Below, piece by piece: positions 7,979 through 56,200 of a stretch of DNA of 64,000 bases (its first letter is position 1; every line of letters begins with the position of its first letter). The stretch is from NCBI GenBank assembly GCA_030066905.1, contig JASJAR010000008.1:42932-106931 (forward strand). The letters are read 5' to 3'. The translations under genes and the position numbers were made by a program. The notes under the pieces were generated by a model. That model worked only from the letters and a program-made list of their open reading frames with translations, did not search any database and was not told where the DNA came from. This stretch comes from Paracoccaceae bacterium. GTDB lineage: Bacteria; Pseudomonadota; Alphaproteobacteria; Rhodobacterales; Rhodobacteraceae.

Positions 7979-8383
7979 ATGCGATTTGCCGACGACACCG
8001 CCCCCGATGCGGCCGATTTCGAGGCCCTCGCCGGGGCCGCCCTCGCCGCGCTGCCGGAGGCGTTCCGCGATGCGGCCGCAAAGGTAGTGCTCCGGGTCGA
8101 GGATTTCGCTCCGGAGACGATCCTCGATGAAATGGGCATGGAAGACGCCTTCGAACTCACCGGGCTCTATGACGGCATCCCGCTCACCGAAAAGTCGGTG
8201 ATGGACCAGCCCCAGGGCCCCGACACGATCTGGCTTTTCCGCCGCCCGATCCTCGACGAATGGGCCGGCCGGGGCGATGTAACGCTGGGGGAGCTCGTCA
8301 CCCACGTGGTCGTCCACGAGCTGGCCCATCATTTCGGCTGGTCGGATGCGGATATCGCGACGGTGGATGAATGGTGGCGGTGA
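7979..8383 (+). CDS. zincin-like metallopeptidase family protein (DUF1025/Zincin_1-like)
   Basis: Tail of ORF 7229..8383(+). ATG at 7979 gives MRFADDTAPDAADFEALAG... and contains the HExxH motif VVHELAHHFGW. Confidence 0.65.
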   Translation: MRFADDTAPDAADFEALAGAALAALPEAFRDAAAKVVLRVEDFAPETILDEMGMEDAFELTGLYDGIPLTEKSVMDQPQGPDTIWLFRRPILDEWAGRGDVTLGELVTHVVVHELAHHFGWSDADIATVDEWWR

Positions 8384-8397
8384 GGGCGGGATCGAAC

Positions 8398-8577
8398 CGT
8401 TTTGGTCAGAATCGGGCGTTCGTTTGCCCGCCCCGATCCACAGCCCCCCCCCGCGTCCCGGGCTCGACCCGGGACCTCGATAGGCTTGGCTCTCCATTGG
8501 ATCGAGGCCCCGGATCAGGTCCGGGGCGCGTTTCGCCAAGGGCTGCCGGTGGAAGACCAGAGCGTCTCCTTCAGGCC
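8398..8577 (-). repeat. family-1 MITE-like double-hairpin repeat, copy 1
   Basis: The reverse complement aligns end to end with copies at 14044 and 18266. Shared parts are the hairpins CCCCGGAcctgaTCCGGGG and GTCCCGGGtcgagCCCGGGAC, the palindromic centre CCTCGAT...ATCGAGG, and imperfect TIRs (TTTTGG(C/T)C(T/A)GAA...). Confidence 0.8.
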
Positions 8578-8659
8578 AGTCACCCGCCTGGCCAAATGAA
8601 ACCCGCTTGCGCTGGTGGCGCTAACACCGCAGATAGGGAGTGCTGAGGAGGCCCGCGCC

Positions 8660-9610
8660 ATGCGCACCGACATTCTGACGATCACTTTGAACCCCACGGT
8701 CGACTTCGCGATGACCGCGCCGAAGATCGTCCCGGAGCTGAAACTGCGCTGTTCGGAGCCCCATGTGGACCCCGGCGGCGGCGGCATCAACGTCGCCCGG
8801 GCGATCCGGCTTCTGGGCGGTCAGGCGACGGCTCTCGTGGCCATCGGCGGGGCGACGGGGGCGCATCTTCTGCAACTTCTGGCCCTTGAGGGCGTGCCCA
8901 CGGTGGCCTTTCAGGGCCCCGGCGAAACCCGCCAATCGACCTCCGTCATCGATCTGTCGACGAAGGACCAGTTCCGTTTCGTCACGCCCGGCCCGGCCTG
9001 GCATCAGGAAGACGTGGACCGGGGCCTGCGCTCCATCGACCAGGCCGCGGGCGACGGCACGCTCGTGGTGCTCTCGGGCAGCCAGCCGCCGGGGGTCGCG
9101 AAGGATTTCCCCTCGATCCTGGCCGATCACGTCCGCGACCGGAAAGCCGAACTCATCGTCGACACCTCGGGGCCGGCGCTGTTTCACCTCGCCGAAGGGC
9201 CCCATGAAGCGGTCGCGGTGCTGAGAATGGACGGGCCCGAAGCCGAGGAGCTTGCGGGACGGGCGCTGCCGAACCGGGCCGATACCGCCGATTTCGCGCA
9301 GGAGCTTGTGAAACGGGGCGTGGCCCGGATCGTGATCGTCGCCCGCGGTGCCGACGGCTCGGTGATGGCCTCGGCGGACGGGCGCTGGCACGCGGTCGGC
9401 CCGGCGGTGGAGGTGATCTCGAAGGTCGGCGCGGGCGACAGTTTCGTCGGCGCCTTTGCCTATAGCCTCGCCCTGGGAGAACCGCTCCCCGACTGCCTCG
9501 CCCATGGGGTCGCCTCGGCGAGTGCGTCGGTGACGACCGAGGCGACACGGCTTTGCGAGCCGGAGACGGTGGCGGCGCTTAGAGCGGAGACCAAGGTGGA
9601 GGCGGTGTGA
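8660..9610 (+). CDS. PfkB-family sugar/hexose-phosphate kinase (1-phosphofructokinase / PfkB-2 like)
   Basis: ORF 8615..9610(+). ATG at 8660 gives MRTDILTITLNPTVD. Motifs GGGGINVARA and the C-terminal GAGDSFVGAF are the PfkB signatures. Confidence 0.75.
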   Translation: MRTDILTITLNPTVDFAMTAPKIVPELKLRCSEPHVDPGGGGINVARAIRLLGGQATALVAIGGATGAHLLQLLALEGVPTVAFQGPGETRQSTSVIDLSTKDQFRFVTPGPAWHQEDVDRGLRSIDQAAGDGTLVVLSGSQPPGVAKDFPSILADHVRDRKAELIVDTSGPALFHLAEGPHEAVAVLRMDGPEAEELAGRALPNRADTADFAQELVKRGVARIVIVARGADGSVMASADGRWHAVGPAVEVISKVGAGDSFVGAFAYSLALGEPLPDCLAHGVASASASVTTEATRLCEPETVAALRAETKVEAV

Positions 9611-9612
9611 GG

Positions 9613-9664
9613 CGGTATCCGCGCGCGGATACCGTGCCGGATATCGCGCGCGATATCCGGTTTT
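9613..9664 (+). terminator. twin perfect GC palindromes plus T-run (likely terminator of the kinase gene)
   Basis: CGGTATCCGCGCGCGGATACCG (9613-9634) is followed by CCGGATATCGCGCGCGATATCCGG (9637-9660) and then TTTT (9661-9664), 3 nt after the stop codon. Confidence 0.6.
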
Positions 9665-9680
9665 AATGTGGGAACAACGT

Positions 9681-10428
9681 CTACCAACCAGTCAGATTTG
9701 CATCCAGGTTAGTCGCTAGCGGATGACGGCTCAGAAACCGCTTGATCAGAACTTGACGAGCCTCCTCCGTATTCAAATCAAGAAGAATTCTACGTCACCA
9801 AAAATACTATTAACCAAAAAGCACCGATTAGGATTGGTACGAAGAATGAAAATACATTACCGCGCCGGCCGATACTGCTGCGTGACCCCGCTCCTTTGAT
9901 TGCTGGCAAAAGGCCAATTGGGTCAATCAAGTCTCGAACTCCGCGCGGCAAACATCTTTCTCCCTCGGGCCCGTCATATCTTGTTCGCCACTTCCTCACA
10001 GTCCTGCTCACGGCCTCTTGAGCAGCTAGAATACTAATGAAAGACACAACAGAAACCAATATCCCCGTCACAGAAAACGCAAAATTCACCATCCGTTGCG
10101 CTTCATCCATTCGACCTTGCGTGAGCGCAAATGCGGTGAAGAGGAAGGCTTGTAGTGTAACCAGCCAAGTAGTTCTTCAATTCACCAAAGTATCTTCGTG
10201 AACAACCTTTTCTCGATAGAGCTTGTAAATTTCGATTGATTCAGGTGTGAGAAATTTCTCTACATCGCTCATATTGCTTGATAGTAGCAATTTTGGTCGA
10301 TTGGGATAACTGACCTCAACAGGGTCGGAAAAGGTATCCTTCCACCACCGAACAACCCGGTTATTTTTGATAATGTTCAAGATCACCTCCGAGATCAGAT
10401 ACATACGATACTTCAATCTGAAAGACAA
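9681..10428 (-). pseudogene. disrupted gene for a ~245-aa 3-TM membrane protein of unknown family (listed as ORFs 10177..10428 and 9790..10110)
   Basis: Both listed ORFs are in the same frame: 10111..10176 is 66 nt, open, and encodes RTTWLVTLQAFLFTAFALTQGR. They are separated only by the TGA at 10177-10179. After the TAG at 9790, the +1 frame continues as RILLDLNTEEARQVLIKRFLSRHPLATNLDANLTGW to TAG at 9681. The codon usage is AT-rich. Confidence 0.4.
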
Positions 10429-10760
10429 TTAAACCGTTTTGCTCCGAGTTCCGCATCTTAAGTACATACTTATTGATCGCTATAATGAATTGTAATCCCA
10501 AGATAGTCCTTGCAATACGAAACGCAATCAATGATATCCATGAACATACCGTACATCGTCGAAGCCAATGGACAGATGGATGGAAGGCTTTTTTCTCGTC
10601 AGTTCCGCATGCCGTTTGATCGTCGTTTTGGTCGGGTTGACGTTCCAGTCCATCATCAAGCGGAAATTGTTACAGCCAATGATTACCATGCAACTGGGAA
10701 ACCTAGATGTTCATTTCTTGATAGCTTCGAAAGCACACTCAGTACGTAGATGAGAGACGC

Positions 10761-12419
10761 CTATCCCCTATCCCGCCACGCATTCGCAATCGGGTACCGC
10801 CGGTCGAGCCAGAATGCCCGCGGGGTGAGTCTTGTGCCCGGTGCCGATTGGAAGCGTTTGTATTCGGCAAGATAGATCAGGCGTTCGATCTTTGTGACCG
10901 TATCGCGGTCGAACCCCATCGCGACCACTTCAGCGACGGATTTCTCCTCGTCGATCAGCGCCTCCAGCATCACGTCGAGCTCCGCATAGGGCGGCAGGCT
11001 GTCTTCGTCCTTCTGGTCGGCGCGGAGTTCTGCCGTGGGGGGCTTGTCGATCACGCGCGGCGGGATCACATTGCCCGCCGGCCCCTTCATCCAGTCGCGG
11101 TGGTTGGCGTTCCTCCAGCGGCAGGTCTCGAAGACGCGGGTTTTGTAGAGGTCTTTTAAGGGGTTATAACCGCCGGCCATGTCGCCGTAGATCGTCGCGT
11201 AGCCCACCGCGACTTCGGATTTGTTGCCCGTGGTCAGAAGCATCTCGCCGAACTTGTTCGACAGGGCCATGAGGAGGAGGCCCCTTAGGCGGGATTGGAT
11301 GTTTTCTTCCGTAAGGTCTTCGGCGCGGCCGGAAAAAAGCGGCGCGAGCGCTTCGGTGACGGCGGCGCGGGGCCCGGCGATCGGCACCGTGTCGAGGCGG
11401 CAGCCGAGCGACTTTGCCACCGAGGCGGCGTCTTCGAGCGAGGTCGGAGAGGTGTATTCGGACGGCAACATTACGCAACGGACGTTCTGGGGCCCCAGGG
11501 CATCGGCGGCGATGGTGGCCACAAGCGCCGAATCCACCCCGCCCGAGAGGCCGAGGACGGCCCTTTCGAACCCGGTTTTGCGGAAGTAGTCGGCGAGGCT
11601 GAGGACCATCGCGCGGTAGTCCTGCTCCCAGGCGTCGGGGAAGACCTGGCGCGCGCCGGTTGCGGCGCGCCAGCCCTCGGGCGTCCGGGTGAAGTCGACA
11701 TGGACCACCGCCTCCTCGAACGCCGGCAGCGACACCGCGAGCGCCCCGCCGGGGTTCAGAACGAAGCTTGCCCCGTCGAAGACCTGATCGTCCTGGCCGC
11801 CGACCATGTTGAGATAGACAAGCGGCAGACCGGTCTCGACACTGCGCTCGACCATGAGGCCGAGGCGGCGGTCGAACTTGCCGCGGTAATAGGGCGAACC
11901 GTTGGGGACGAGAAGGAGTTCCGCCCCGCTCTCGGCGAGTGCCTCCGAGACGTCCGGCCACCAGGCATCTTCGCAGACCGGCGAGCCGATCCGCGCCGGG
12001 CCGATCCGGTAGGGGCCGGAGATCGGCCCCGGCGTGTAGAGCCGCACCTCGTCGAATACCGTCTCGTTGGGGAGATCGTGCTTGAGGATGCGGGCTTTCA
12101 CCGCGCCGTCTGCGAGGATGAAGTAGGTGTTGTAGAGGTTGCCGTCCTTCCGCCAGGGGCCCCCGATCCCGATCGCGGGACCGTCCGCACAATCTGCAGC
12201 CAGCGCCTCGATGGCCGCGACGCAAGACGTCTCGACCGCCGGCTTCATGACGAGATCCTGGGGCTGGTATCCGAGGATGAACATCTCGGCGAAGGCGATC
12301 ATGTCGGCGCCGGCGGCCTTCGCCTCCGCCCAGGCGCTGCGGGCCTTCTCGCCATTGCCGGCGACATCCCCGACGGTCGGGTTAAGCTGCGCCAGCGTCA
12401 GGCGAAATGTCTCGGCCAT
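10761..12419 (-). CDS. nadE: glutamine-dependent NAD+ synthetase
   Basis: 552-aa ORF with an N-terminal nitrilase/CN-hydrolase domain (MAETFRLTLAQLNPTVGDVAGN). The C-terminal synthetase domain has the SGGVDS P-loop (LGLSGGVDSALVA). Confidence 0.92.
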   Translation of the reverse strand: MAETFRLTLAQLNPTVGDVAGNGEKARSAWAEAKAAGADMIAFAEMFILGYQPQDLVMKPAVETSCVAAIEALAADCADGPAIGIGGPWRKDGNLYNTYFILADGAVKARILKHDLPNETVFDEVRLYTPGPISGPYRIGPARIGSPVCEDAWWPDVSEALAESGAELLLVPNGSPYYRGKFDRRLGLMVERSVETGLPLVYLNMVGGQDDQVFDGASFVLNPGGALAVSLPAFEEAVVHVDFTRTPEGWRAATGARQVFPDAWEQDYRAMVLSLADYFRKTGFERAVLGLSGGVDSALVATIAADALGPQNVRCVMLPSEYTSPTSLEDAASVAKSLGCRLDTVPIAGPRAAVTEALAPLFSGRAEDLTEENIQSRLRGLLLMALSNKFGEMLLTTGNKSEVAVGYATIYGDMAGGYNPLKDLYKTRVFETCRWRNANHRDWMKGPAGNVIPPRVIDKPPTAELRADQKDEDSLPPYAELDVMLEALIDEEKSVAEVVAMGFDRDTVTKIERLIYLAEYKRFQSAPGTRLTPRAFWLDRRYPIANAWRDRG

Positions 12420-12556
12420 GGTGCCTCCGGATGGATCGGGCGAGACTTAGCAGATGGTGGCGGGAGGAAAAGGCCGCACCCGAAACGTGTTGCGGGGCTT
12501 CGGGGGGGCCGGTAGATTGAGACCCGAACCGGGAAACGGGTGGGCGAGCGGTAGAG

Positions 12557-13996
12557 ATGACAGCATTCGCGACAGCGCTTCGGCGGGCCGGGGCGACAGG
12601 GATTGTGATCGTTCTGGCGGCGGGTATCGCCGCGGCGCAATCGGACGAGGTCGTCACCAAGCAGTATGACGACGGCGGCGTCTATCAGGGCACTTTCCGG
12701 GACGGCAAGCAGCACGGCACCGGCACCTACCGGCTGCCCAACGGCTATGTCTATACCGGCGACTGGGTGGACGGCGAGATTCGCGGCCAGGGCCGCGCGG
12801 AGTTTCCGAACGGCTCGGTCTACGAGGGCGAATTCGCCGCCGGCAAGCCCGAGGGCCGGGGCAAGATCACCTTCGCCGACGGCGGCACCTACGAGGGCGA
12901 ATGGGTCGATGGCAAGATCACCGGGACCGGCGTGGCGATTTACGCCAACGGGGTGCGCTATGAGGGCGGGTTCGTCGATGCGCTCCATGACGGACAGGGC
13001 CGGATGGAAAGCCCCAACGGCTATGTCTACGAAGGCCAGTGGGCCGGCGGGATCAAAGAGGGCAACGGCCGGATCACCTACCCGGACGGTGCGGTCTACG
13101 AGGGCGACCTGGTGCGCGGGGCGCGCGAGGGGCGCGGCACGCTGACGATGCCCGACGGGTTGACCTATGTCGGCGAATGGGCCGACGGACAGATCAACGG
13201 CACGGGCCGGCTGACCCAGCCAAATGGCGATGTCTACGAGGGCGAGCTTGTCGACGGCAAACGCCAGGGGACGGGCCGGGTGGTCTACGCCAACGGCGAT
13301 GTCTATGAAGGCACTTTCGAGAACGACCGCCGCCACGGCACCGGAACCTTTACCGGCACCGACGGCTATCTCTACACCGGTGCCTGGGTCGAAGGCCGGA
13401 TCGAGGGCGACGGCACGGTGACCTACCCCGACGGGTCGGTCTATGTCGGCACGTTCAAGGACGATCTCGCCGACGGGAGGGGCATGATCACCTATCCCGA
13501 CGGCAACACCTATGAAGGCGAATGGAAGGCCGGGGTGATCGAGGGCCAGGGCAAGGCGACCTATTCCAACGGGCTCGTCTACGAGGGCGGGTTCCGCAAC
13601 GCGCAGATGCACGGGGAAGGCACGATGACCTTCGCCGACGGCTACCGCTACGAAGGCGAATGGCAGGACGGCCAGCGCTGGGGGACGGGCACGGCCACCT
13701 ATTCCGACGGCACGGTTTACGAGGGCGGCTTCGTCGCCGGCCAGCGCGAGGGGATGGGGACGATCACCATGCCCGACGGCTTCACCTATACCGGCGCCTG
13801 GGTCGACGGCGAGATCGAAGGCCAAGGGGTAGCGACCTATGCCAATGGCGATGTCTATGAGGGGATGTTCGCCGCCGGCAAGCGCCAGGGGGAAGGGACG
13901 ATCCGCTATGCGAGCGGAGAGGTCCAGAGCGGGACCTGGACGAATGGGGCGTTGACGGAGCCTGCGGAGGAAGAACCGGCGACCGAGAGCCAGTAG
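12557..13996 (+). CDS. secreted MORN-repeat protein
   Basis: 479 aa with signal-like N-terminus MTAFATALRRAGATGIVIVLAAGIAAAQS. This is followed by about 19 tandem 23-aa units of the form Y.G.(W/F).(D/N)G...G.G.... Confidence 0.85.
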   Translation: MTAFATALRRAGATGIVIVLAAGIAAAQSDEVVTKQYDDGGVYQGTFRDGKQHGTGTYRLPNGYVYTGDWVDGEIRGQGRAEFPNGSVYEGEFAAGKPEGRGKITFADGGTYEGEWVDGKITGTGVAIYANGVRYEGGFVDALHDGQGRMESPNGYVYEGQWAGGIKEGNGRITYPDGAVYEGDLVRGAREGRGTLTMPDGLTYVGEWADGQINGTGRLTQPNGDVYEGELVDGKRQGTGRVVYANGDVYEGTFENDRRHGTGTFTGTDGYLYTGAWVEGRIEGDGTVTYPDGSVYVGTFKDDLADGRGMITYPDGNTYEGEWKAGVIEGQGKATYSNGLVYEGGFRNAQMHGEGTMTFADGYRYEGEWQDGQRWGTGTATYSDGTVYEGGFVAGQREGMGTITMPDGFTYTGAWVDGEIEGQGVATYANGDVYEGMFAAGKRQGEGTIRYASGEVQSGTWTNGALTEPAEEEPATESQ

Positions 13997-14010
13997 GCGA
14001 TGCCCAGGCG

Positions 14011-14050
14011 GGCCTGAGGCTGCGGAGAGGGGGGCTCAGACCTCGGTTTT
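14011..14050 (+). terminator. putative rho-independent terminator of the MORN gene
   Basis: GGCCTGAG (14011-18) pairs with CTCAGACC (14035-42) at 7/8, followed by TCGGTTTT. The T-run may belong to the adjacent repeat TIR. Confidence 0.45.
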
Positions 14051-14222
14051 GGCCTGAACGGGCCGTTCGGGTCTTGCTCCGGCAGCGCTTGGCGAAACAC
14101 GCCCCGGACTTGATCCGGGGCCTCGATCCACCGGAGTGCCAGGCCTGTCGAGGTCCCGGGTCAAGCCCGGGACGCGGGTTACTTGGGGTCGGGGCGCGCA
14201 GAATGAACGTCCGCTCCTGGCC
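14044..14222 (+). repeat. family-1 MITE-like repeat, copy 2 (reference orientation)
   Basis: cggttttggcctgaacgggccgttcgggtcttgctccggcagcgcttggcgaaacacGCCCCGGActtgaTCCGGGGCCTCGATccaccggagtgccaggcctgTCGAGGTCCCGGGtcaagCCCGGGACgcgggttacttggggtcggggcgcgcagaatgaacgtccgctcctggcc. Confidence 0.85.
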
Positions 14223-14529
14223 GGGACCGACGACCTAGACTATTCCCCAACGCCCTTTGCCGCCGGCCCGGGTTCTCCGGGGGCGGTCTGGGGCTGCCGG
14301 TTCGGCGTGTCTGGGAGTGGTCAGGGCTTGTGAAACAGTGGATCCACTGTAACCGGGTACCATCTCGCCCGGGTTTTTGCCCGAACGAAGCGGCCCCTGG
14401 GCCTTCCAAGCGATGCGCATCGCGGGGAGATGTATCGCCCGGAAAGGTAAATGGGTGCTGATGGCACCGCACGGTGGGGCGGCCGGGAGGCATCCTGCAC
14501 CCCTGCCCGTCGACTGCCGGCAGCGCCCG

Positions 14530-16056
14530 TTATACCCGCGCGCCCTGGTCCATGCGCCGCAGAAAGGCCTCGGCATCCTCCAAAACCTGCGCCCGGCGGT
14601 CCTCCTTCATCCGGTCCCAGGTGCCGTACATATTCGCCATCCGCGGGTTCTTGGAAAACCGCGCCCGATGCCGGTCGAGAAACGCCCAGTAGAGGAGGTT
14701 GAAGGGGCAGGCCCCCTCCCCGAGCTTCGTCTTCACGTCATAGGCGCAGCCGTCGCAATAATTCGACATCTTGGCGATGTAGTTACCCGAAGACACGTAG
14801 GGTTTTGAGGCCACCACCCCGCCATCGGCAAACTGGCTCATGCCGATCACGTTCGGGGCTTCGACCCATTCATAGGCGTCGGCATATACGGCGAGATACC
14901 AGTCGTGGACCTCCGAGGGGTCGATGCCCGCCAGAAGCGCGAAATTGCCGGTCACCATCAGCCTTTGGATGTGGTGGGCATAGGCCTCCTCCATCGTCTG
15001 GGTGACGGTCTCGGCGATGCAGGCCATGTCGGTGGCCGCGTCCCAGTAGAACTCGGGCAGCGGGCGGGTGTGGTTCAGAACGTTGCGGGAGGTGTAATCG
15101 GGGCCTTCGCGGAAATAGATGCCGCGGATGTATTCGCGCCAGCCGATGATCTGGCGGATGAAGCCTTCGACGGCGTTAAGGGGGGCATCGCCCGCGCGGT
15201 AGGCAGCTTCGGCGGCCTTGCAGACCTCCAACGGATCGAGGAGGCCGGCGTGGATGTAAAGCGACGTGATCGAGTGGTAGAGGAAGCGCTCGCCGGTGAG
15301 CATCGCGTCCTGGTAGTCGCCGAAGTGCGGGAGGGCGTGGGTCACCCAATGGGCGAGCGCGCGTTTGGCTTGGCCGGACTCGACGGCGAACCAGAACGGG
15401 CGAAGGTCCCCGTAGTTCGAGCCGAAGCGGTCTTCGACGAGGGCGAGGACCTCTTCGGTGGTCTCGTCCGGCGTAAACTCCATCGGACCCTTGTGAGAGA
15501 CCCCGTCGGGCGCGGGTTTGCGGTTTTCCGCGTCGTAGTTCCACTTGCCGCCCTCGGGGGCGTCGCCGTCCATCAGGAGCCCGGTTTTCCGGCGCATGTC
15601 GCGGTAGAAGTACTCCATGCGGAGGTCTTTGCGGCCATCGGCCCAGGCCTCGAACTCGGCGTGGGAGGCGAGGAAGCGGTCGTCTTCGAGAAGGGTGACG
15701 TCAAGCGGCGCCTCTTCGAGGGCGGCAATGAGGCGGTGCTCGCCGGGTTCGGTGGCGAGCGCCGCGCTCACCCCGTGCTTGTCGGCGTAGCGGAGAAGCT
15801 CGCCGGGGATCGAGCCGGTGTTATCGCCGTCGTCGAGCTTGGTGTATTCGACCTGCCAGCCGTCGTCCCTGAGCCGCGCCGCGAAATGGCGCATCACCGA
15901 GAAGATGAAGGCGATCTTCTTGGGGTGGTGAGGGACGTAGGTCGCTTCGTCGGCGACCTCGGCCATGACGACGATGTCGGAGCCCTTGTCGGCGGCTTTG
16001 AGCGCGGCGATGGCTGACGTGCATTGGTCGCCGAGAACGAGGATCAGCCGGCTCAC
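14530..16056 (-). CDS. cryptochrome/photolyase family protein, FeS-BCP / CryB / (6-4) PhrB type
   Basis: 508 aa starting MSRLILVLGDQCT. The C-terminal Cys cluster region YCDGCAYDVKTKLGEGACPFNLLYWAFLDRH is typical of the Fe-S bacterial cryptochrome/photolyase clade. Confidence 0.85.
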   Translation of the reverse strand: MSRLILVLGDQCTSAIAALKAADKGSDIVVMAEVADEATYVPHHPKKIAFIFSVMRHFAARLRDDGWQVEYTKLDDGDNTGSIPGELLRYADKHGVSAALATEPGEHRLIAALEEAPLDVTLLEDDRFLASHAEFEAWADGRKDLRMEYFYRDMRRKTGLLMDGDAPEGGKWNYDAENRKPAPDGVSHKGPMEFTPDETTEEVLALVEDRFGSNYGDLRPFWFAVESGQAKRALAHWVTHALPHFGDYQDAMLTGERFLYHSITSLYIHAGLLDPLEVCKAAEAAYRAGDAPLNAVEGFIRQIIGWREYIRGIYFREGPDYTSRNVLNHTRPLPEFYWDAATDMACIAETVTQTMEEAYAHHIQRLMVTGNFALLAGIDPSEVHDWYLAVYADAYEWVEAPNVIGMSQFADGGVVASKPYVSSGNYIAKMSNYCDGCAYDVKTKLGEGACPFNLLYWAFLDRHRARFSKNPRMANMYGTWDRMKEDRRAQVLEDAEAFLRRMDQGARV

Positions 16057-16718
16057 CAGGGGATCTCCTTGAAGGCGTAGTCGAAAAAGCCGCCCGACTG
16101 CGCGGGGCCGGCGGTTTCGAGCACGTCGGCGAGGTTCTTGGCGGCCGTCTCGGGCGGAACGGTCTTGTGGCGGCCGGCGTATTTCGCGGTGAAATCGGTG
16201 GCGACCGTACCGGGGTGGAGGGCAAGGACAGTCGCCTGCTTGTGGCTGCGGGCAAGCTCGATGGCGGCGGTGTGGAGAAGCTGGTTGAGGGCGGCTTTTG
16301 CGGTGCGGTAGCTCGCCCAGCCGCCGAGGCGATTGTCGCCGATGGAGCCGACCCGGGCCGAGAGGGCGGCGAACGTGGAGGGGCGGTCTTTCGGCAGGAG
16401 ATGGAGGGCGTGTTTCAGCACGAGGAAGGGCCCGATGGCGTTGAAAGCGAATTGATCGGCGAGCGCCTTGGGCGTGACCGCGCAGATCGTCTTTTCGGGC
16501 TCGGCCCCGTCGATGACGAGGGCACCTGTGGCCACGACGATGAGCTCGAAGCCGGGGGCCAAGCGGGCAAGGCCCGCTTCCACCGCGCTTTCATCTGTGA
16601 CGTCGAAGCCGTCGGACGAGCGCGACAGCGCGGTCACCGCCCAGCCTCTGCGGTCGAGTTCGCCGGCCAGTGCCGCACCGATCCCGCCCGTGGCGCCGAT
16701 CACCAAAGCCCGTTTCAT
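16053..16718 (-). CDS. SDR family oxidoreductase
   Basis: ATG at 16718 gives MKRALVIGATGGIGAALA (TGxxxGxG) and the catalytic motif YRTAKAAL (YxxxK). A 4-nt ATGA overlap with the photolyase gene suggests an operon. Confidence 0.8.
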   Translation of the reverse strand: MKRALVIGATGGIGAALAGELDRRGWAVTALSRSSDGFDVTDESAVEAGLARLAPGFELIVVATGALVIDGAEPEKTICAVTPKALADQFAFNAIGPFLVLKHALHLLPKDRPSTFAALSARVGSIGDNRLGGWASYRTAKAALNQLLHTAAIELARSHKQATVLALHPGTVATDFTAKYAGRHKTVPPETAAKNLADVLETAGPAQSGGFFDYAFKEIPW

Positions 16719-16795
16719 GCGCCCTCCCCGATTGACCACGGCTGAGATAGGGCCACCTCAGAAGATGACGAGCCCCCTGCCCCGGAGCCCTCCCT

Positions 16796-17557
16796 ATGCG
16801 CCTCGCCCTCGCCGCCCTTCTTCTGGCCGCCGCACCGGCCGCCGCGCTCGATCTCAGACTCACCAACACCTACGATCTCGCCCGCCCGGCGAGCCTCGAT
16901 TACGACCCGACCTTCTGCGGGCTCTGGATTGCCAACGAGAGCCGGGAACTGGTGCTCGTCACCCTCGACGGGCTGGAACTGAGGCGCTTTTCTTCCGACC
17001 TCCGGCGCATCAAGGCGGTGACCCTCGAAGGCGACAACCTCCTTATCGCCGACGGGTTCGGTGGGTTTCAGCGGGTGACGAAGGACGGCACCGCGCTTGG
17101 GCCGCCCTTCGAGGTCGAAGGCGGCTGGGCGGATACTGAAGGGATCGCCATCGGCGAAGACGGCACGATCATCACCGTCGAGGACGACCCCGAGCGGCTC
17201 ACCTGGTTCACGCCCGAGGGCGAGATCCTCCGCCAGATCGATACGAAAGACCTCGACCCGCCGCTCATCGAAGCCCAAGGAATCGCACGGGACCCCCGCA
17301 CGGGGCATCTTCTGATCGTCGACGATCTCGAAGGCACCAATTCGCTCTATGAGTTCACCGAGGACGGGGAGCTTCTGGCCACCCAGTCACTCCTCGAATA
17401 TGGGCTCGACCCTGAGGGCATCGCGATCCGGCCGGGGTCGGGGGAGATGTTCATCGCCTTCGACCAGGGCGCGCGGATCGCGGCGTTCGAGTACACCCCG
17501 ACCCTGCCCGAAGGCGCCGCGCCGCTGCCGCCCGGGGCCGATTGCATGATGTTCTGA
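16796..17557 (+). CDS. secreted hypothetical protein (possibly beta-propeller, SdiA-regulated/YjiK-like)
   Basis: 253 aa with signal peptide MRLALAALLLAAAPAAALD. It has repeated D..EGIA / D.(E/A)QGIA motifs. The family assignment is tentative. Confidence 0.4.
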   Translation: MRLALAALLLAAAPAAALDLRLTNTYDLARPASLDYDPTFCGLWIANESRELVLVTLDGLELRRFSSDLRRIKAVTLEGDNLLIADGFGGFQRVTKDGTALGPPFEVEGGWADTEGIAIGEDGTIITVEDDPERLTWFTPEGEILRQIDTKDLDPPLIEAQGIARDPRTGHLLIVDDLEGTNSLYEFTEDGELLATQSLLEYGLDPEGIAIRPGSGEMFIAFDQGARIAAFEYTPTLPEGAAPLPPGADCMMF

Positions 17558-17595
17558 TTTCGGTCTATCCCGGGGGCCTTCCGAGGAGGTCCGCT

Positions 17596-18243
17596 ATGGG
17601 CGAAATCGTGCTGGTCCGCCACGGCCAGGCTAATACCGGTGCGAAGACCGAGGCCGAGTACGACCGGCTTTCGGAGCGCGGCAAGACGCAAGCCGAATGG
17701 CTCGGAGCCTGGATGGCGGCCCATGAGGCGGCGTTCGATCTGGTGCTGTCCGGCACCATGCGGCGGCATCTCGAGACCGCCCAAGCGATGGGGGTGAGAC
17801 CTGAGCGCCAGGACGCGCGGCTCAACGAGATCGACTATTTTGCCCTCGTGCGCGACATGGAGACGACCCACGGGGTACCCGAGCCCGAGACGGAGGCCGA
17901 GTTCGCCGCCCATGCGGTGCAGACCTTCACCGCCTGGCACCGTGCCGAGATCGCCGGGGGCGAGCCCTTCGCGACCTTCGAGGCCCGGATCAAGGCGGTG
18001 ATCGAGGAAGCCGCGGTGCCCGGGCGCCGGGTGCTTTGCGTGACCTCGGGCGGGGTGATCTCGATGGCGCTGAGGATCGCGCTGGGGCTCGACACCGAGC
18101 GGCTGGCCCATGTGCTGGTGCCAATCCACAATTCCTCCGTCCACCGGTTCCGGGTGCTCGAGCACGGCACCTATCTGGCGTCGTTCAACGCGATACCCCA
18201 TCTCGACTCTCCAGAACGGGCGGCGTTCCGGACGTTTACCTGA
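17596..18243 (+). CDS. histidine phosphatase (phosphoglycerate mutase-like) family protein
   Basis: ATG at 17596, after GAGGAGG, gives MGEIVLVRHGQANTG (the RHG catalytic motif). Confidence 0.8.
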   Translation: MGEIVLVRHGQANTGAKTEAEYDRLSERGKTQAEWLGAWMAAHEAAFDLVLSGTMRRHLETAQAMGVRPERQDARLNEIDYFALVRDMETTHGVPEPETEAEFAAHAVQTFTAWHRAEIAGGEPFATFEARIKAVIEEAAVPGRRVLCVTSGGVISMALRIALGLDTERLAHVLVPIHNSSVHRFRVLEHGTYLASFNAIPHLDSPERAAFRTFT

Positions 18244-18265
18244 GGGGGAGAGTGCGGTGCGTGGC

Positions 18266-18444
18266 CGGTTTTGGGCTGAAGCGGACGTTCGGGTCATGCT
18301 CCGGCAGCTCTTGGCGAAACACGCCCCGGACTTGATCCGGGGCCTCGATCGACCGGAGCGCCAAGACTATCGAGGTCCCGGGTCAAGCCCGGGACGCGAG
18401 TCACTTGGGGTCGGGGCGCGCAGAATGAACGCCCGCTCAAGGCC
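18266..18444 (+). repeat. family-1 MITE-like repeat, copy 3
   Basis: Near-identical in layout and length to copy 2, with the same two hairpins, centre and ends. Confidence 0.85.
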
Positions 18445-18524
18445 AACGACGACGTCCAAGTCATCCCGCACCGATTGCACGCTAGGGGCTTTTCAACGCC
18501 GCCGGGGTCTGTATGCTCCGTCCC

Positions 18525-18581
18525 ATGGTATCGACGCACCATACGCGCCTTCTCGGCCTCCTTCTTCTTAGCCGCCTCTGA
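18525..18581 (+). promoter_or_regulatory. leucine-rich leader peptide ORF upstream of leuA (attenuation-type control)
   Basis: ATG GTA TCG ACG CAC CAT ACG CGC CTT CTC GGC CTC CTT CTT CTT AGC CGC CTC TGA encodes MVSTHHTRLLGLLLLSRL: 7 Leu in 18 codons, 76 nt before leuA. Overlapping alternative stems follow it: CCTCTGAGCG (18574-83) with CGCTCAGGGG (18605-14), versus GGCGC (18597-601) with GCGCC (18622-26). Confidence 0.6.
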
Positions 18582-18656
18582 GCGTGCCATCTCGGCGCGA
18601 CCGCTCAGGGGAGGATCAGCGCCGGACCAAACCTCAGGCTAAGACGAGAGATCCCT

Positions 18657-20255
<1,599 letters not shown>

Positions 20256-20266
20256 GGCATTACCCC

Positions 20267-20377
20267 CTGCCCCGGGCTTGGCCCTGGGCCTTGATCCTAT
20301 GGAGCGCTCCATTTGTTCGAGGCCCCGGGTCAAGCCCGGGGCGGGGTTGCAAGGTCGGCGGCGTCGCGCCAAAGGCC
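20267..20377 (+). repeat. family-1 repeat, copy 4 (left arm missing, diverged)
   Basis: ctgCCCCGGGcttggCCCTGGGCCTTGATcctatggagcgctccatttgtTCGAGGCCCCGGGtcaagCCCGGGGcggggttgcaaggtcgg... starts 12 nt after the leuA stop. Confidence 0.65.
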
Positions 20378-27105: not shown

Positions 27106-27296
27106 GGCCGGGCGGGCCTTCCCGCTCCGTCTCTGCCCCCGCTTTCCCCCGAACACACCGCGTCCCGGGCTTTACCCGGGACATCTATGAGCTCTTCGCT
27201 CCGGTGCGCCCGGGCCCCGGATCACGTCCGGGGCGTGGATCGCTCAAAGGGCAACCGGCGCGGTCCTTCGTCGAGCGGCAATACCCGTCCAAGGTC
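27106..27296 (-). repeat. family-1 repeat, copy 5 (diverged arms)
   Basis: cgcGTCCCGGGctttaCCCGGGACatctatgagctcttcgctccggtgcgcccggGCCCCGGAtcacgTCCGGGGCgtggatcgctcaaagggc... begins right after the stop at 27105. Confidence 0.7.
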
Positions 27297-27332
27297 AAAT
27301 GCCCGAGATCGGTTCGCCCGATATCCATCCTG

Positions 27333-33938: not shown

Positions 33939-36900
33939 CTACGCCACGTCTTCGACCGCCGCCACACCGGGGAGCGACTTCAGCGCCGAGCGGATCTCGG
34001 GCGTCATCGGCCAGCCGTCGCCGAGCTCGATATCGACCTCGCCGACGGGCAGGCCGAGAGGCGCGATCCGCACCTCGCCCCGGCCCCTGACGGCGGCATC
34101 TTCGCGGTAGCGGTCGAGGAGCGAGCGCACCGAGACGGCGCCTTCGGGCGCATCGATGAAGACCCGCACCGCCATGTCGCCAGCATCGGCGGCTACCGTG
34201 TCGAGCGGAGTGACCGAGCGGGCCACGGGGTCGAAGCCGCCGTCGTTGAAGCGGGCCTCCAGCGTCATCACCACGCGCAGGCCCTGTTCGAAGACCCTGC
34301 GCGACGCCTCGAAGTCTTCGGGGAACAGCGCCATGCCCGGCACCGTGAGCGTGGGGTCGGAGATCGTCATCCGGAAGAACCGCGTCCCCCGGCCCGATTT
34401 CCGGTCCTGGAGCCCCGAGACCATCACCCCGACCCGGCCCACGGCCCCGCCGTCGCGCTCGGCCTTGTCGCGAAGCTCGGCCAGCGTCGTGCAGCCCTTC
34501 CGCTTGAGTGCCGCGAGATAATCGTCGAGCGGGTGGCCGGAAAGGTAAAAACCCACCGCCTCGTGCTCGGCTTCCAGCCGGTCGGAGGCGAGCCAGTCCT
34601 CGGCCGGCGAGAGCCGCGGCTCGGGGAGGTCGTCGCCGGCCTCGCCGAAAAGCGAGACCTGGGCCGAGGCGCGCTGGTCGTGGATGGCGGCCGAATAGGC
34701 CGTCAGCGCATCGAGGCTCTGGAAAACCCGGGCGCGGTTCGGGTCGAGCTCGTCGAAGGCCCCGGCCCTGCTGAGCATCTCAAGCGGCCGCTTGCCGATG
34801 CGGCGAAGGTCCACCCGGCGGGCGAAGTCGAAGAGCGTGGCGAAGGGTTTGTCTGGGGTAGCCCCGCCCTGGACCTGATCCGGGGCCTCGTGCGGACCGT
34901 CGCGCCCGGTGGCACGGGGCCCCTGCTCTGCGGCCGGGGCGGGGCGAGCTTGGCGGCGGGCCTCGACGATGAGCCGCATCGCCTCGACCCCGACATTCTT
35001 CAACGCCCCCAAAGCATAGACGATTCTGCCGTCCGCGACCGAGAACATCGCCTCGGAGCGGTTCACGCAAGGCGGCACGATCTCGATCCCGAGCCCGCGC
35101 CGCACCTCCTCGGCATAGACGGCAAGCTTGTCGGTCAGATGGAGGTCGCAGTTCATGACGCCGGCCATGAACTCCACGGGGTGGTTGGCCTTGAGCCAGG
35201 CCGTCTGGTAGCTGACCACGGCATAGGCCGCGGCGTGGGATTTGTTGAAGCCGTAATTGGCGAACTTGTCGAGGAGGTTCCAGACCTCCAGCGCCTTCTT
35301 CTCGTCGACGCCGTTATCCTTGGCACCTGCGAGGAATTTCGGGCGTTCGGCATCCATCGCGGCCTGGATCTTCTTGCCCATTGCCCGGCGCAGAAGGTCC
35401 GCACCGCCCAAAGAATAGCCGGCCATCTTCCGGGCGATCTCCATCACCTGTTCCTGGTAGACGATGATGCCTTGCGTCTCGTCGAGGATGGGATCGATCA
35501 ACGGGTGGATGCTCTCGCGCTCGGCCCGGTCGTTCTTGACGTCGCAATATTTCGGGATGTTCTCCATCGGCCCCGGGCGGTAGAGCGCGACGAGGGCAAC
35601 GATGTCTTCGATTGAGGTGGGTTTCATCCGCACCAGGGCATCCATCATGCCCGAGCTTTCCACCTGGAAGACGGCGACGGTCTTGGCGGCGGAATAGAGC
35701 TCGTAGGTCTTTTCGTCGTCGAGCGGGATCGCGTTGATGTCGAGTTCAACTCCGCGTTCGGCCAGAAGGTCGAGGGCGTTCTGGATCACGGTCAGCGTCT
35801 TCAGCCCGAGAAAGTCGAACTTCACAAGGCCGGCCTGCTCGACCCATTTCATGTTGAACTGGGTTGCGGGCATGTCCGAGCGGGGGTCCTGGTAGAGCGG
35901 GACGAGCTTGTCGAGCGCGCGGTCGCCGATCACCACACCGGCGGCATGGGTGGAGGCGTTGCGCAAGAGACCTTCGACCTGGGCGCCGTAGGTCAGGAGC
36001 CGGTCGACGACCTCTTCGGCCTTGGCCTCTTCGCGAAGACGCGGCTCGTCGGCCAGGGCTTTCTCGATGGAAACGGGCTTCACCCCTTCGATGGGGATGA
36101 GCTTCGAGAGCCGGTCGACCTGGCCGTAGGGCATTTGCAGCACCCGGCCGATGTCGCGGACGGCGGCTTTCGACAGGAGCGCGCCGAAAGTGATGATCTG
36201 GCCGACCCGGTCGCGGCCGTATTTCTCCTGCACGTAGGCGATGACCTCTTCACGGCGGTCCATGCAGAAGTCGATGTCGAAGTCGGGCATCGAGACCCGT
36301 TCGGGGTTGAGGAACCGTTCGAAGAGGAGGCCGTAGCGCAAGGGGTCGAGATCGGTGATGGTGAGTGCATAGGCCACAAGCGAGCCCGCGCCCGAGCCCC
36401 GGCCGGGGCCGACGGGGATGCTTTGGTCCTTGGCCCATTTGATGAAGTCGGCGACGATCAGGAAGTAGCCCGGAAAGCCCATGCCTTCGATGACACCGAG
36501 TTCGTAGTCGAGCCGGGCCTCGTACTCGGCGAGGGGTGCGGCGGGCTCGATGGCCGCAAGGCGGGCGGTCAGGCCGTCGCGGGCCTGTTTGCGGAGTTCC
36601 TCGACCTCGTTTTCGGCGAATTTCGGCAGGATCGGGTCGTGGCGGGAGACGGCAAAGGCGCAGCGGCGGGCGATTTCGATGGTGTTCAGGGTTGCCTCGG
36701 GGAGGTCGGCGAAGAGGGCGGCCATTTCGGCGGGCGACTTGAAGTAGTGCTGCGGCGTGAGGCGGCGGCGGGGGGCCTGCTGGTCGACGTAAGCCCCTTC
36801 GGCGATGCAGATGAGCGCGTCATGGGCCTCGTACATCGAGGGCTCCGGGAAATAGACGTCGTTGGTGGCCACGAGCGGGAGGGCCTTTTGGTAGGCCAGC

Positions 36901-40258: not shown

Positions 40259-40411
40259 GTCCCCCCGCCCTGGATCGAAGATGCACCCGTTCCGGGCTCT
40301 GCGCGGGACCTCGATCTGCCCAGCGCGCGATGGGATCGGGGCCGCGGATCGGGGCCGGGGCAGGTCGCGCCGGGCGTCGTCGGCCTCAAGCGAGAGCACC
40401 AGAGACCGGCC
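40259..40411 (-). repeat. family-1 repeat, copy 6 (degenerate)
   Basis: cccgttccgggctctgcgcgggacCTCGATctgcccagcgcgcgatgggATCGGggccgcggatcggggccgggg..., with the arm ...caagcgagagcaccagagaccggcc. It is recognisable only by alignment to copy 1. Confidence 0.45.
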
Positions 40412-45353: not shown

Positions 45354-45380
45354 GGGACCGGGAAAGTTCCCGGGCCGTCC

Positions 45381-45562
45381 CGGTTTGGCCTGACGCGGAG
45401 GTTCCTCGGTCCGCGCCGATCTTAAGACCGTCGCGTCCCGGGCCTGACCCGGGATCTCGACAGGCTTGGCACTCCGGGACGTCGGGGGCCCGGATCAGGT
45501 CCCGGGCGTGGGTGGTCGGTTGCCGCAGGCGGCACCGCGGCCCTGTTGAGGCCAAAAGAACG
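45381..45562 (-). repeat. family-1 repeat, copy 7
   Basis: cggtttggcctgacgcggaggttc...cgcGTCCCGGGcctgaCCCGGGAtCTCGAcaggcttggcactccgggacgTCGgGGGCCCGGAtcaggTCCCGGGCgtgg...ttgaggccaaaagaacg. Confidence 0.8.
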
Positions 45563-52448: not shown

Positions 52449-52492
52449 GGGGAGCGTCCTGGGGCCGCACACCCCGGCCGTCGTCCGATCTT

Positions 52493-52652
52493 GGCCTTTT
52501 GCCCACGCTGGCCGAACCCGGCGACATGCGCCCCGGACGTGATCCGGGGCCTCGATTGGCTTGGCACTCCGGTGGGTCGGGGCCCCGGATCACGTCCGGG
52601 GCGTGTATCGCTAGGGCTTTGGAACGCGCAGAATGAACGTCGGCCCAAGGCC
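52493..52652. repeat. family-1 repeat, copy 8 (symmetrised variant: both hairpins CCCCGGAygtgaTCCGGGG type)
   Basis: gcGCCCCGGAcgtgaTCCGGGGCCTCGATtggcttggcactccggtgggTCGGGGCCCCGGAtcacgTCCGGGGCgtg...gcgcagaatgaacgtcggcccaaggcc. Confidence 0.75.
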
Positions 52653-52818
52653 GATTCTGTTGAAAAACTCGCTGTTTGGACGGCAGCGGCCAGTTTGGCG
52701 GAACATCCTCCTGATAAATGGTGATTGAGCGAACGACGCTTACTAGGCGGCCCCTTGCAAGAACACCGTTCCAAGTTTTCGAGTGAAATTTCGGGTTGGA
52801 GAGTTTTTCAACACAATC
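52653..52818. repeat. 166-bp element bounded by 18-bp terminal inverted repeats (MITE-like, different family)
   Basis: GATTCTGTTGAAAAACTC (52653-52670) matches the reverse complement of 52801-52818 (GATTGTGTTGAAAAACTC) at 17/18. The interior has lower GC and no ORF. It abuts the end of family-1 copy 8. Confidence 0.55.
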
Positions 52819-54820: not shown

Positions 54821-55099
54821 TACGGGTGTCGCGATGGCAAAGGCGGCGGCGATTGCGAAACGTCCATGCTATCCGCCCTGATATGTAGAAAAGAACATAG
54901 GACGGGATGCAGTCGTTTCGAACCGGCGGGCCAGGTTTGCCCGGGGTGGGCGGTTGGCGTCGCCGATGGAAGGAACAAGACCCGGCCACGGTTCGACCCC
55001 GGACCGCGTTCGACAGCGCATTTCCTCGGGCCGCACCCCCCGGATCGGGTCTGTGGCGCGGTTTATGAAGGTCTTTCTGGGCAAGGCCAGGTCGCCATA

Positions 55100-56200
55100 T
55101 CAAGACCGAGCCCCCTCACCCCCCGAACCCGAAGCGATCCCGCGCATGTCCGGCGAAGCCTTCCCACGATCTCCGCAAACCGGGCAGGTCGAATTCCGGG
55201 CAACCGACATAACGCGGGTTTCGCCGTAGAGCCCGTCATAGATCATCATCCGACCGAGGAGCGCGTCGCCTGCCCCGGCGATCACCTTCAGCGCCTCCAG
55301 CGCCATGATCGAGCCGATGATGCCGGGCAGCGGTCCGGCCACGCCGGCTTCCGCGCAGGTCTGGGAGACCCCCGGAGCGGCCGGAACCGGAAAGACGCAG
55401 GCGTAGCAGGGTGCCCCCCGGGCCGGGTCGAACACGCTCACCTGACCCTCCCACTGGCTGATGGCCCCCGAAACCAGCGGTTTGCCCAAGACGACGGCCG
55501 CACGGTTCGCGACATAGCGGGTCTCGGTATCGTCGGCCCCGTCGACGATCACGTCGTAGTCCGCAAAAAGATCGGCCGCGATGTCCTCGGTCAGGCGCCG
55601 GTTGTAGGGCCGAACCGTCACGAAGGGGTTCTGCGCGGTCACCGCCGCTTCCGCCGAAAACACCTTCGGCATGCCGATCCGCGCGTCGGTATGGATCGTC
55701 TGGCGTTGCAGGTTCGACAGTTCCACGACATCGTTGTCAATCACCCCCAGCGTGCCCACGCCCGCCGCCCCGAGATACTGGAGCACCGGTGAGCCGAGCC
55801 CGCCGGCACCGATCACCAGCACCCGGGCCGCTTCGATCTTCTGCTGCCCCATGCCGCCGATCTCTCTGAGAACGATATGGCGGGCAGCGCGTTCGAGCCG
55901 CGTCGATGTCGATCCGGTCTCCCGGGCAGGTGGCCGGTTTTCGGGTCGGACCCAGCGGCGCAGCAGCGTCAGGCCCCGGAAGTAGACCCAGACGGTCGCC
56001 CCGAGCCCGCCGAGCACCAGCCATTCGGCCGCCGAACCGCCGGTGGCCTCACGGAGCGGATGGCCCGGGGGCAGGCCGACATTGGCCGCGAGCACCGCGA
56101 CATAAAGGAGCGCGATCATCAGAAGGCGGGCGTTAACCGGCGCGTTCATCAGCCGCCCGAGGACCCAGAGCGCCCCCGCGAGGACCAAAAAGAGCGTCAT
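55100..56200 (-). CDS. HesA/MoeB/ThiF family adenylyltransferase with ~110-aa N-terminal membrane extension
   Basis: 366 aa. There are 3 predicted TMs in the first ~85 residues. The E1-like core follows, with VLVIGAGGLGSPVLQYLGAAGVG and CxxC...CPVC. Confidence 0.8.
   Translation of the reverse strand: MTLFLVLAGALWVLGRLMNAPVNARLLMIALLYVAVLAANVGLPPGHPLREATGGSAAEWLVLGGLGATVWVYFRGLTLLRRWVRPENRPPARETGSTSTRLERAARHIVLREIGGMGQQKIEAARVLVIGAGGLGSPVLQYLGAAGVGTLGVIDNDVVELSNLQRQTIHTDARIGMPKVFSAEAAVTAQNPFVTVRPYNRRLTEDIAADLFADYDVIVDGADDTETRYVANRAAVVLGKPLVSGAISQWEGQVSVFDPARGAPCYACVFPVPAAPGVSQTCAEAGVAGPLPGIIGSIMALEALKVIAGAGDALLGRMMIYDGLYGETRVMSVARNSTCPVCGDRGKASPDMRGIASGSGGEGARS

Follow-up and report, generated by a model that had tools for sequence, protein, structure and literature searches.

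The stretch of DNA analysed here, referred to below as the window, comprises 64,000 nucleotides (C15:42932-106931) of the draft genome of a Paracoccaceae bacterium, an assembly of 3.69 Mb in 55 contigs with 66.5% G+C that is called G000 where it is compared with other genomes. Within the window, a MORN-repeat gene with its stop at 13996 and a photolyase-related gene with its stop at 14530, both assigned by Pfam, converge on an intergenic region containing a hairpin-rich repeat. The repeat proper, by direct reading, occupies 180 bp of the plus strand at 14047-14226, and it was matched by a profile of its family at 14042..14232 (nhmmer, 180.2 bits, E 6.9e-53). This element, its family, and the relation of its hairpins to a small nuclease gene in other bacteria are the subject of this work.

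The element begins with a left terminal inverted repeat (TIR) at 14047..14069, TTTTGGCCTGAACGGGCCGTTCG, which matches the consensus TIR TTTTGGCCTTGAGCGGACGTTCG, and ends with a right TIR at 14204..14226, TGAACGTCCGCTCCTGGCCGGGA, in which the terminal AAAA has degenerated. Between the two lie a hairpin H1 (14101..14121; 8-bp stem GCCCCGGA/TCCGGGGC, loop CTTGA) and a hairpin H2 (14153..14173; 8-bp stem GTCCCGGG/CCCGGGAC, loop TCAAG), the second being an inverted and compensated copy of the first. They are separated by a 31-nt spacer at 14122..14152, a palindromic centre bracketed by CTCGAT...GTCGAG, and all of these features are on the plus strand. The consensus of 77 full copies reads TTTTGGCCTTGAGCGGACGTTCG GGTCTTGCTCCGGCAGCCCTTGGCGAAACAC GCCCCGGA-CTTGA-TCCGGGGC CCCGATCCACCGGAGTGCCAAGCCTATCGAG GTCCCGGG-TCAAG-CCCGGGAC GCGGGGGGCTTGGGATCGGGGCGGGCAAA CGAACGTCCGCTCAAGGCCAAAA, the two hyphenated blocks being H1 and H2; its 23-nt ends are perfect reverse complements of each other and its centre bracket is CCYCGAT...ATCGAGG. 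A previous sequence-only reading of the window had recognised this anatomy correctly, and the TIR it described is perfect over 23 nt in the genome-wide consensus. The recurring shadow peptides APDLIRGLD and RGPGSSPGR that it listed are, by direct reading, H1 and H2 read in frame.

A nhmmer profile seeded with six copies from the window was run on the whole assembly and gave 419 matches (best E 5e-53), corresponding to 255 distinct loci that cover 34.9 kb or 0.95% of the genome. The six seeds match by construction, and two further copies of the window were recovered independently (E 4.7e-8 and E 2e-6). An IUPAC pattern of hairpin and tail had 215 matches in the genome and the same pattern read backwards had 0, so that the family, whose copies do align, lies far beyond chance. 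About 96 of the 255 loci are full-length (~180 bp) and about 65 are core-only (~85 bp); most of the loci that are not full-length cover only profile positions ~50-140, which hold both hairpins and the centre. The possibility that core-only copies are old full-length copies with decayed arms was rejected: they are truly armless, the arms projected onto them scoring as shuffled sequence does. Adjacent units form 23 clusters of at least two units in the genome, eight of these having at least three, and some are tandem arrays.

Base pairs were counted on 222 copies of this genome and on 71 copies from other genomes. The pairs of H1 are kept at 95.7% in the former and at 99% in the latter, with a closing pair that alternates between AT, GC and CG, and both local hairpins are 95-99% paired as against 39-62% for controls with shifted partners. 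H2 also covaries across genomes (closing pair GC 34, AT 16 and CG 15; second pair TA 34 and CG 29), and it differs from H1 by two compensated changes, C-G to T-A and A-T to G-C. The pairs of the centre bracket are partly conserved (81% paired). If H1 and H2 were to pair with each other in a single long hairpin, C-A and A-C mismatches would be found at two positions in ~90% of the copies of this genome. Since the local hairpins are paired with compensatory changes and the H1 by H2 pairing is mismatched, the constraint is on two separate small hairpins. Pairwise identity among full copies is 88% in the core (92% in the hairpins) and 62-69% in the arms. Folded as single-stranded DNA, the consensus reaches -73.4 kcal/mol (z = -9.4), the TIRs forming a closing stem around the two local hairpins; when an actual copy is folded as RNA, its advantage over shuffles is modest (z -2.4).

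A scan with the H1 pattern, using one genome per species, found loci mostly in Rhodobacterales (including Rhodovulum, Cypionkella, Wenxinia, Pikeienuella, Shimia, Roseovarius and Sulfitobacter) and also in Erythrobacter, Porphyrobacter and Hyphomonadaceae. These foreign loci match the core of the profile only, in the form H1-CCTCGA, a variable spacer and TCGAGG-H2. On contig C57 of genome G009 (locus L004), an open reading frame (ORF) of 94-108 aa for a GIY-YIG protein has a core on each side. This protein, used as a tblastn query, found homologues placed immediately between the two hairpins in Cypionkella sinensis (L048) and in L013, and a homologue adjoining cores in L076, all three of them loci that had been retrieved by the hairpin alone. 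Hairpin repeats named NTS and SRM have been described together with the Ssn nucleases by Chenal et al. (Nat Commun 2025; PMC11893778), and we call the present genes Ssn-like. In G083 (L129) and G119 (L132), matches to the hairpin pattern again flank the Ssn-like gene on both sides. The flanked proteins of the relatives, encoded by a single-copy gene, have 93-95 aa and consist of a GIY-YIG domain alone; a search of NCBIfam with them gave nothing above the cut-off, and the closest solved structure is that of a UPF0213 GIY-YIG protein (E 6e-4). Among 121 genera of the family, the hairpin pattern is present in 23 genomes, the gene in 15 and both in 10, meaning that the gene accompanies the hairpins in 10 of 23 genomes versus 5 of the 98 others (odds ratio 14.3, p 1.5e-5).

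At four Rhodobacterales loci (L004 365-691; L048 5213-5497; L076 6654-6932; L013 5834-6109), the Ssn-like gene is found at one conserved site, between an N-carbamoyl-amino-acid amidohydrolase gene (end ...VLDVAGVVG*) and a dihydropyrimidinase gene (start MTTVIKNGTIVTADLTY). As judged from this shared position, the sequences suggest that the gene is vertically inherited at a fixed locus, as reported for RAYTs, the REP-associated tyrosine transposases that accompany repetitive extragenic palindromes (REPs). The syntenic site of G000 is an assembly gap: C13 ends (185653) inside the amidohydrolase gene and C31 ends (82156) at an H2-type hairpin that precedes the start of the dihydropyrimidinase gene by 25 nt (loci L113 and L112). 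An exact-protein look-up of the gene next to the gap found no other assembly. Two putative Ssn fragments beside repeats, C15:33098-33133 and C33:16829-16888, were suggested by weak tblastn matches and were discarded as spurious; the first lies inside a longer, unrelated-looking ORF that is cyclase-like from its motif. Separately, genome G081 has, ~80 nt from its intact Ssn-like gene, another but partial Ssn-like frame that contains an in-frame TGA (C1:388684-388791) and looks like a duplicated fragment or pseudogene.

The arms have a different distribution from the core. In 40 relatives we found no arms and no full-length form, only core matches, and the same is true of G083, the single other genome with more than 200 hairpins. 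The 23-nt terminal repeat, allowing at most two mismatches, has 46 sites in G000 and is at chance level in 120 other genera. Hairpin copy number ranges from 0 to more than 200 across genera, and the congeners have 9, 4 and 0 matches to the hairpin pattern. At 18243-18657, the site of a full-length copy of the window (18266..18454), the orthologous site is short and empty in the congeners G002 and G003, and C21:30632-30893 is likewise empty in G003; other sites gave less clean comparisons, and the intergenic region 13996-14530 is too diverged from the congeners to align. The ~50-nt arms with their 23-nt inverted repeat are thus specific to the lineage of this genome among those sampled, and with arms confined to G000 and empty sites in congeners, it follows that the composite was amplified in its own lineage. 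At a site where G000 has the 180-bp element, the congener G001 carries another hairpin as two inverted copies, GCGGGCTGAAGCCCGCC ... GGCGGGCTTCAGCCCGCC (L123, C40:10420-11200), and these are a different REP-like family in the same convergent intergenic region.

We consider it probable that the repeat is a composite, non-autonomous and selfish-looking DNA element, in which an Ssn-associated hairpin dimer is combined with lineage-specific inverted-repeat arms. The first layer is the core of ~75-85 bp, a head-to-head REP-type hairpin dimer made of H1, the 31-nt spacer and H2. This core belongs to the alphaproteobacterial hairpin class that brackets the single-copy ~94-aa GIY-YIG gene in relatives, and dimers without the gene are best understood as miniature derivatives of the hairpin-gene-hairpin unit. 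A protein that recognises H1 and H2 in single-stranded DNA would explain why each is maintained as a local hairpin. The second layer is the arms, ~50 nt on each side and ending in the 23-nt inverted repeat, which are specific to this lineage among the genomes sampled, the ~96 copies of the ~180-bp composite having presumably been amplified after the split from the sampled congeners. Copying might be driven by an Ssn-like nuclease or by an unknown enzyme acting on the inverted ends, with single-stranded hairpin DNA as the likely intermediate; by analogy with Ssn and RAYT systems, we favour a single-strand, hairpin-recognising route. Copies would survive nearly exclusively a short way past gene ends, where an insertion is least harmful, and they may in addition favour gene ends that are rich in G.

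Several observations weigh against this explanation. The published SRM search sequence, HGTCWYN(0-2)YYVSBRHN(0-5)WNVSBRGN(0-2)RNCYNB (PMC11893778), matches neither strand of the consensus, and none of its 31 matches in the genome is inside a repeat locus, so that the element falls outside the published degenerate SRM pattern. Its stems also lack the A/T pairs of the CGTC-tagged REPs described in Alphaproteobacteria (Di Nocera et al., BMC Genomics 2013; PMC3733652). In G000, a tblastn search with the protein of a relative found no Ssn-like gene, the syntenic site falling in the gap between C13 and C31, and the sole GIY-YIG match is in a 661-aa open frame that is read as UvrC. No Ssn-like gene was found in the congeners either, and 13 of the 23 hairpin genomes have no detectable one. 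The flanked GIY-YIG nucleases are only putative members of the CDD family cd10448. Ssn nucleases are not known to mobilise their repeats. Finally, the presence of a 23-nt TIR is a hint that the composite form depends on another kind of enzyme, namely a transposase.

The main rival explanation of the composite form is a transposase that acts on its TIRs. The repeat would then be a classical miniature inverted-repeat transposable element (MITE), that is, an internally deleted insertion sequence whose 23-nt TIRs are recognised by a DDE transposase in trans, the hairpins being cargo; the sequence-only reading had called the repeats MITE-like. The perfect 23-nt TIR of the consensus and the empty orthologous sites in congeners are consistent with this, and a further argument came from metagenome contigs, against which the terminal repeat was scanned as an exact match and of which 10 loci were inspected. 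In contigs of related bacteria (76-85% DNA identity in genes), the same terminal repeat is found on a different MITE-like element of ~255 bp (L140 3802-4060; also L142, L143, L146, L147 and L148), with ends GGCCTTGAGCGGACGTTTGGG ... CCAAGGTCCGCATCAAGCCAAAA, an interior unrelated to that of the 180-bp repeat and at least three distinct insertion sites. This suggests that the ends are a recognised module, and because two elements with unrelated interiors have the TIR in common, the ends and the hairpin dimer are separable modules. Nevertheless, no target-site duplication of 2-9 nt was found above chance in 100 combinations of boundary offsets on 68 copies, the flanks being skewed and variable instead of duplicated, and it is in the arms that conservation is lowest. 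The inner hairpins, not the ends, are what is conserved. In the genome, the TIR-like sites outside short copies are seven weak ones (3-4 mismatches), none of which flanks a longer element. No autonomous element sharing the TIR was found in 120 genera, in plasmids or in the 10 metagenome loci, a limited sampling, and a plasmid search with the left arm gave one chance-level match. The terminal-repeat motif that would bound the ORF of a partner transposase is GGCCTTGAGCGGACGTTYGGG; no partner with these ends was found in the draft assembly, where transposase families were not systematically searched, and none lies within the window, as had been noted from the sequence. We therefore regard the MITE explanation as unlikely.

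The flanks of the element led to another proposal. In 88 full copies, the ~30-45 nt on the 5' side are rich in G (G 0.47, C 0.26) and those on the 3' side are rich in C (G 0.25, C 0.45), the corresponding stretches of the focal copy being 14000-14046 and 14227-14270. The skew fades to background by ~75-90 nt and is lacking in repeat-free intergenic regions and in core-only copies. The flanks are not alignable between copies, and the few pairs that share flanks do so mostly via adjacent core units. A longer element with shared flanks was rejected, given that only a few copy pairs share flank sequence, and so was insertion into pre-existing palindromes, the duplex energies of flanks from the same copy and from different copies being equal. 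In the comparisons with empty sites, the skewed flanks belong to the extra DNA. The variable G-rich and C-rich flanks seem to have been inserted together with the element, and they are a clue to how such elements insert. Perhaps there is a new insertion route on single-stranded hairpin DNA, possibly driven by an Ssn-type GIY-YIG nuclease, but this is a speculative proposal to which we give still less credence than to the MITE. Its signature would be the landing of a conserved palindromic element past gene ends, with no target-site duplication and together with ~20-70 nt of variable flank in which G prevails 5' and C prevails 3' of the element, for both strands. If the single-strand route were true, Ssn systems would be genuine mobile-element engines, more than modulators of transformation; and the combination of an Ssn-type dimer with a TIR 'shell' common to another element would be a modular exchange between two repeat systems. 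Near the 3' flank, the 50-nt stretch 14250-14300 is 96% identical to the stretch downstream of the copy at C4:228444, and this is probably another short repeat family.

The position of the copies relative to genes bears on a possible role for the host. The sequence-only reading had counted eight copies in the window, each just past the 3' end of a gene; a repeat search of the window showed one family at all eight places, its copies aligning, and nhmmer found them as well. Besides the focal copy, the full-length ones are at 8389..8582 (minus strand, 167.6 bits), 6-15 nt past the stop of the Zincin_1 gene (8383), in a tandem intergenic region upstream of a PfkB kinase gene (Pfam); at 18266..18454 (plus, 180.6 bits), after the stop of a histidine phosphatase gene (18243) and upstream of leuA; at 27121..27301 (minus, 117.1 bits), filling the convergent intergenic region 27106-27332; at 45372..45561 (minus, 142.1 bits), after the stop of xdhC (45353) in a convergent intergenic region (Pfam); and at 52481..52661 (minus, 130.3 bits), after the stop of a CorA-like gene (52448), also in a convergent intergenic region. 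In the last of these, both hairpins read as the GCCCCGGA type. The two copies that were not seeds are a core-only copy without arms at 20268..20349 (minus, E 4.7e-8, profile positions 54-135), 12 nt past the leuA stop (20255), and a degenerate copy at 40264..40394 (minus, E 2e-6, profile positions 29-159), after the stop of an SRPBCC-like gene (40221) and upstream of a gene for a xanthine dehydrogenase flavin/Fe-S subunit (Pfam). The core being close to a palindrome, the orientations assigned earlier to core-only copies are ambiguous. A ninth, weak fragment of the left half was found at 55038..55110 (minus, nhmmer E 4e-4, profile positions 9-81), and was also seen in the repeat search. A degenerate hairpin-pair core inside the dnaE frame (33939-37487, minus strand) reads CGCCCTGGACCTGATCCGGGGCCTCG ... 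GGGGCCCCTGCTCTGCGGCCGGGGC at 34862..34945, and is below the nhmmer threshold.

For the whole genome, we used our own crude gene calls from a codon-usage model (3,496 genes, 87.5% coding), those of the window being checked with Pfam where critical. Convergent intergenic regions hold 136 loci (27% of such regions occupied), tandem regions 91 (4.6%) and divergent regions 13 (2.2%), and four loci are inside called genes. The position past a gene 3' end is therefore correct for every copy in the window, including the Pfam-checked zincin case, but 'always' is too strong because 13 divergent and four genic loci exist genome-wide. Measured from the upstream stop, the median distance is 35.5 nt for copies in tandem regions and 43.5 nt for those in convergent ones, and the median to the downstream start is 140 nt in tandem regions; many convergent regions consist of the element and ~30 nt on each side. 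In tandem regions 21 copies are in the same orientation and 11 in the opposite one, both orientations being used.

This strong enrichment just past stop codons, together with the compensatory changes that maintain the hairpins and the very stable fold of the DNA consensus (-73 kcal/mol, z -9.4), would also fit a host cis-acting RNA element at gene 3' ends that is not selfish, such as an mRNA stabiliser, an attenuator or a Rho-related signal. There is a precedent in the REP hairpins of E. coli, which stabilise upstream mRNA. The sequence-only reading had suggested a terminator or 3' stabiliser. In no copy does a T-run come after one of the hairpins or after the element as a whole, and no terminator-like call was made in the scanned stretch 8000-27900, which includes five of the eight window copies; the element is not an intrinsic terminator, and the suggestion of a terminator was not borne out. 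A search of Rfam over the window gave no match at the gathering threshold, and a permissive threshold gave only microRNA-precursor noise on the focal copy, so that no curated family is matched. Both orientations occur, orthologous genes in congeners lack the repeat, genera differ in copy number from 0 to more than 200, the arms are decaying, one degenerate copy lies inside dnaE, and a real copy folded as RNA does little better than shuffles (z -2.4). An RNA element is accordingly improbable as an explanation of the family, somewhat more so than the insertion route considered above; protection of upstream mRNA by the hairpins, in a putative stabilising role at the 3' end, is plausible.

Mobilisation as a REPIN by a RAYT (IS200/IS605 superfamily), known from Pseudomonas and Escherichia coli, is largely refuted and very improbable: the inverted pair of REP-like hairpins with a short spacer fits the REPIN definition (PMC3116915 and PMC3337134), and so does the lack of a target-site duplication, but Y1_Tnp (PF01797) is unmatched in the genome in a search that was positive in six control genomes, there is no GTAG tag, and the gene between the hairpins in relatives is a GIY-YIG nuclease.

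Other features of the window lie beside this family. A separate element of ~166 bp and lower G+C at 52653-52818, with inverted ends TCTGTTGAAAAACTC ... GAGTTTTTCAACA, abuts the eighth copy. The MORN-repeat gene upstream of the focal copy contains, at 12860-13874, a periodic internal DNA repeat of 69/138 nt in seven copies with 61-71% identity. A tandem glycine riboswitch with two aptamers (65 and 37 bits) is found at 4284-4442 on the minus strand, upstream of a minus-strand ORF that ends at 4223.

The CGTC-type REP dimers were reported in 2013 to be without a dedicated enzyme, and the Ssn family was described only in 2025. The link of hairpin, gene and hairpin is here extended to a Rhodobacterales hairpin class that the published search pattern misses, and the nuclease gene of the relatives occupies a conserved chromosomal site. 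Such a dimer can be enclosed by inverted-repeat arms and expand, in one lineage, to 1% of the genome, with almost none in congeners. For annotation, the family yields recurrent false ORFs and peptides, breaks assemblies, and is occasionally in frame in essential genes.

As an interspersed, non-coding, hairpin-rich family concentrated downstream of genes, the repeat is rightly compared with REP and BIME elements, as the sequence-only reading had done; it shares with them many extragenic stem-loops, inverted pairs, clusters and a location downstream of genes. The bacterial MITEs Correia, ERIC and RUP resemble it in their length of ~180 bp, non-coding sequence, TIRs, fold into a long hairpin, intergenic position and high copy number, but here there is no target-site duplication or related insertion sequence, and the ends are less conserved than the interior. 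The CIR elements of Caulobacter crescentus are few in number and are defined by conserved CcrM (GANTC) sites, and GANTC is not conserved in the 180-bp repeat. Like this repeat they are alphaproteobacterial, longer than 100 bp, strictly intergenic and structured by inverted repeats (Chen and Shapiro 2003, cited in PMC10969869). With REPIN/RAYT systems and gamma-proteobacterial BIMEs, the family has in common inverted REP pairs that amplify with no target-site duplication, arrays of mosaic and tandem type and, in relatives, a partner gene that is single-copy, apparently inherited vertically and constant in its locus; it differs in that this partner is a GIY-YIG protein and not a tyrosine (HUH) transposase, and in having no GTAG tag and no RAYT.

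The closest comparisons are with the Ssn/SRM systems and the CGTC-tagged REPs. SsnA cuts single-stranded DNA beside its hairpin, the NTS-ssnA-NTS unit has been compared by its authors with an insertion sequence as well as with REP/RAYT systems, and an Ssn gene is present in 81% of the genomes with more than 200 SRMs (PMC11893778). Like these, the present family has hundreds of short hairpin repeats that are rarely genic, patchy lineage-specific expansions, inverted hairpins flanking a single-copy gene for a ~94-aa single-domain GIY-YIG protein in relatives, and some repeat-rich genomes without the gene. Unlike them, it lies outside the degenerate pattern, with an all-G/C-rich stem and a 5-nt loop, its dimer is enclosed in TIR-bearing arms, and no Ssn gene is assembled in its own genome. 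The CGTC REPs have a terminal CGTC (or TGTC/CCTC), a stem of 8-9 bp starting from two A/T pairs, a loop of 4-5 nt and a CCA-like tail (PMC3733652). They occur mostly as head-to-head dimers in convergent and unidirectional intergenic regions, have no dedicated transposase, and in some species all dimers are within a longer palindrome (PMC3733652). The present repeats are unlike them in that the stems GCCCCGGA and GTCCCGGG have no A/T pairs at the first two positions, in that CGTC overlaps the stem and is found on one hairpin only, namely on H2 read in reverse complement, and in having a conserved CCYCGA tail and no CCA tail. They are like them in their 8-bp stems and 4-5-nt loops, in head-to-head dimers with spacers of 20-100 bp and complementary ends, in heterodimers with compensated hairpin differences, in their position near stop codons in convergent or unidirectional regions, in occasional intragenic copies in replication genes, in lacking a dedicated transposase, and in sometimes lying inside a longer palindrome. 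The dimer is found in nearly all copies and across genomes, there is no RAYT, and the named hosts are mostly alphaproteobacterial. The core matches the 'orphan' CGTC-type REP dimers in organisation, if not in an exact fit. The class of repeat is already known, and the variant armed with inverted repeats is new.

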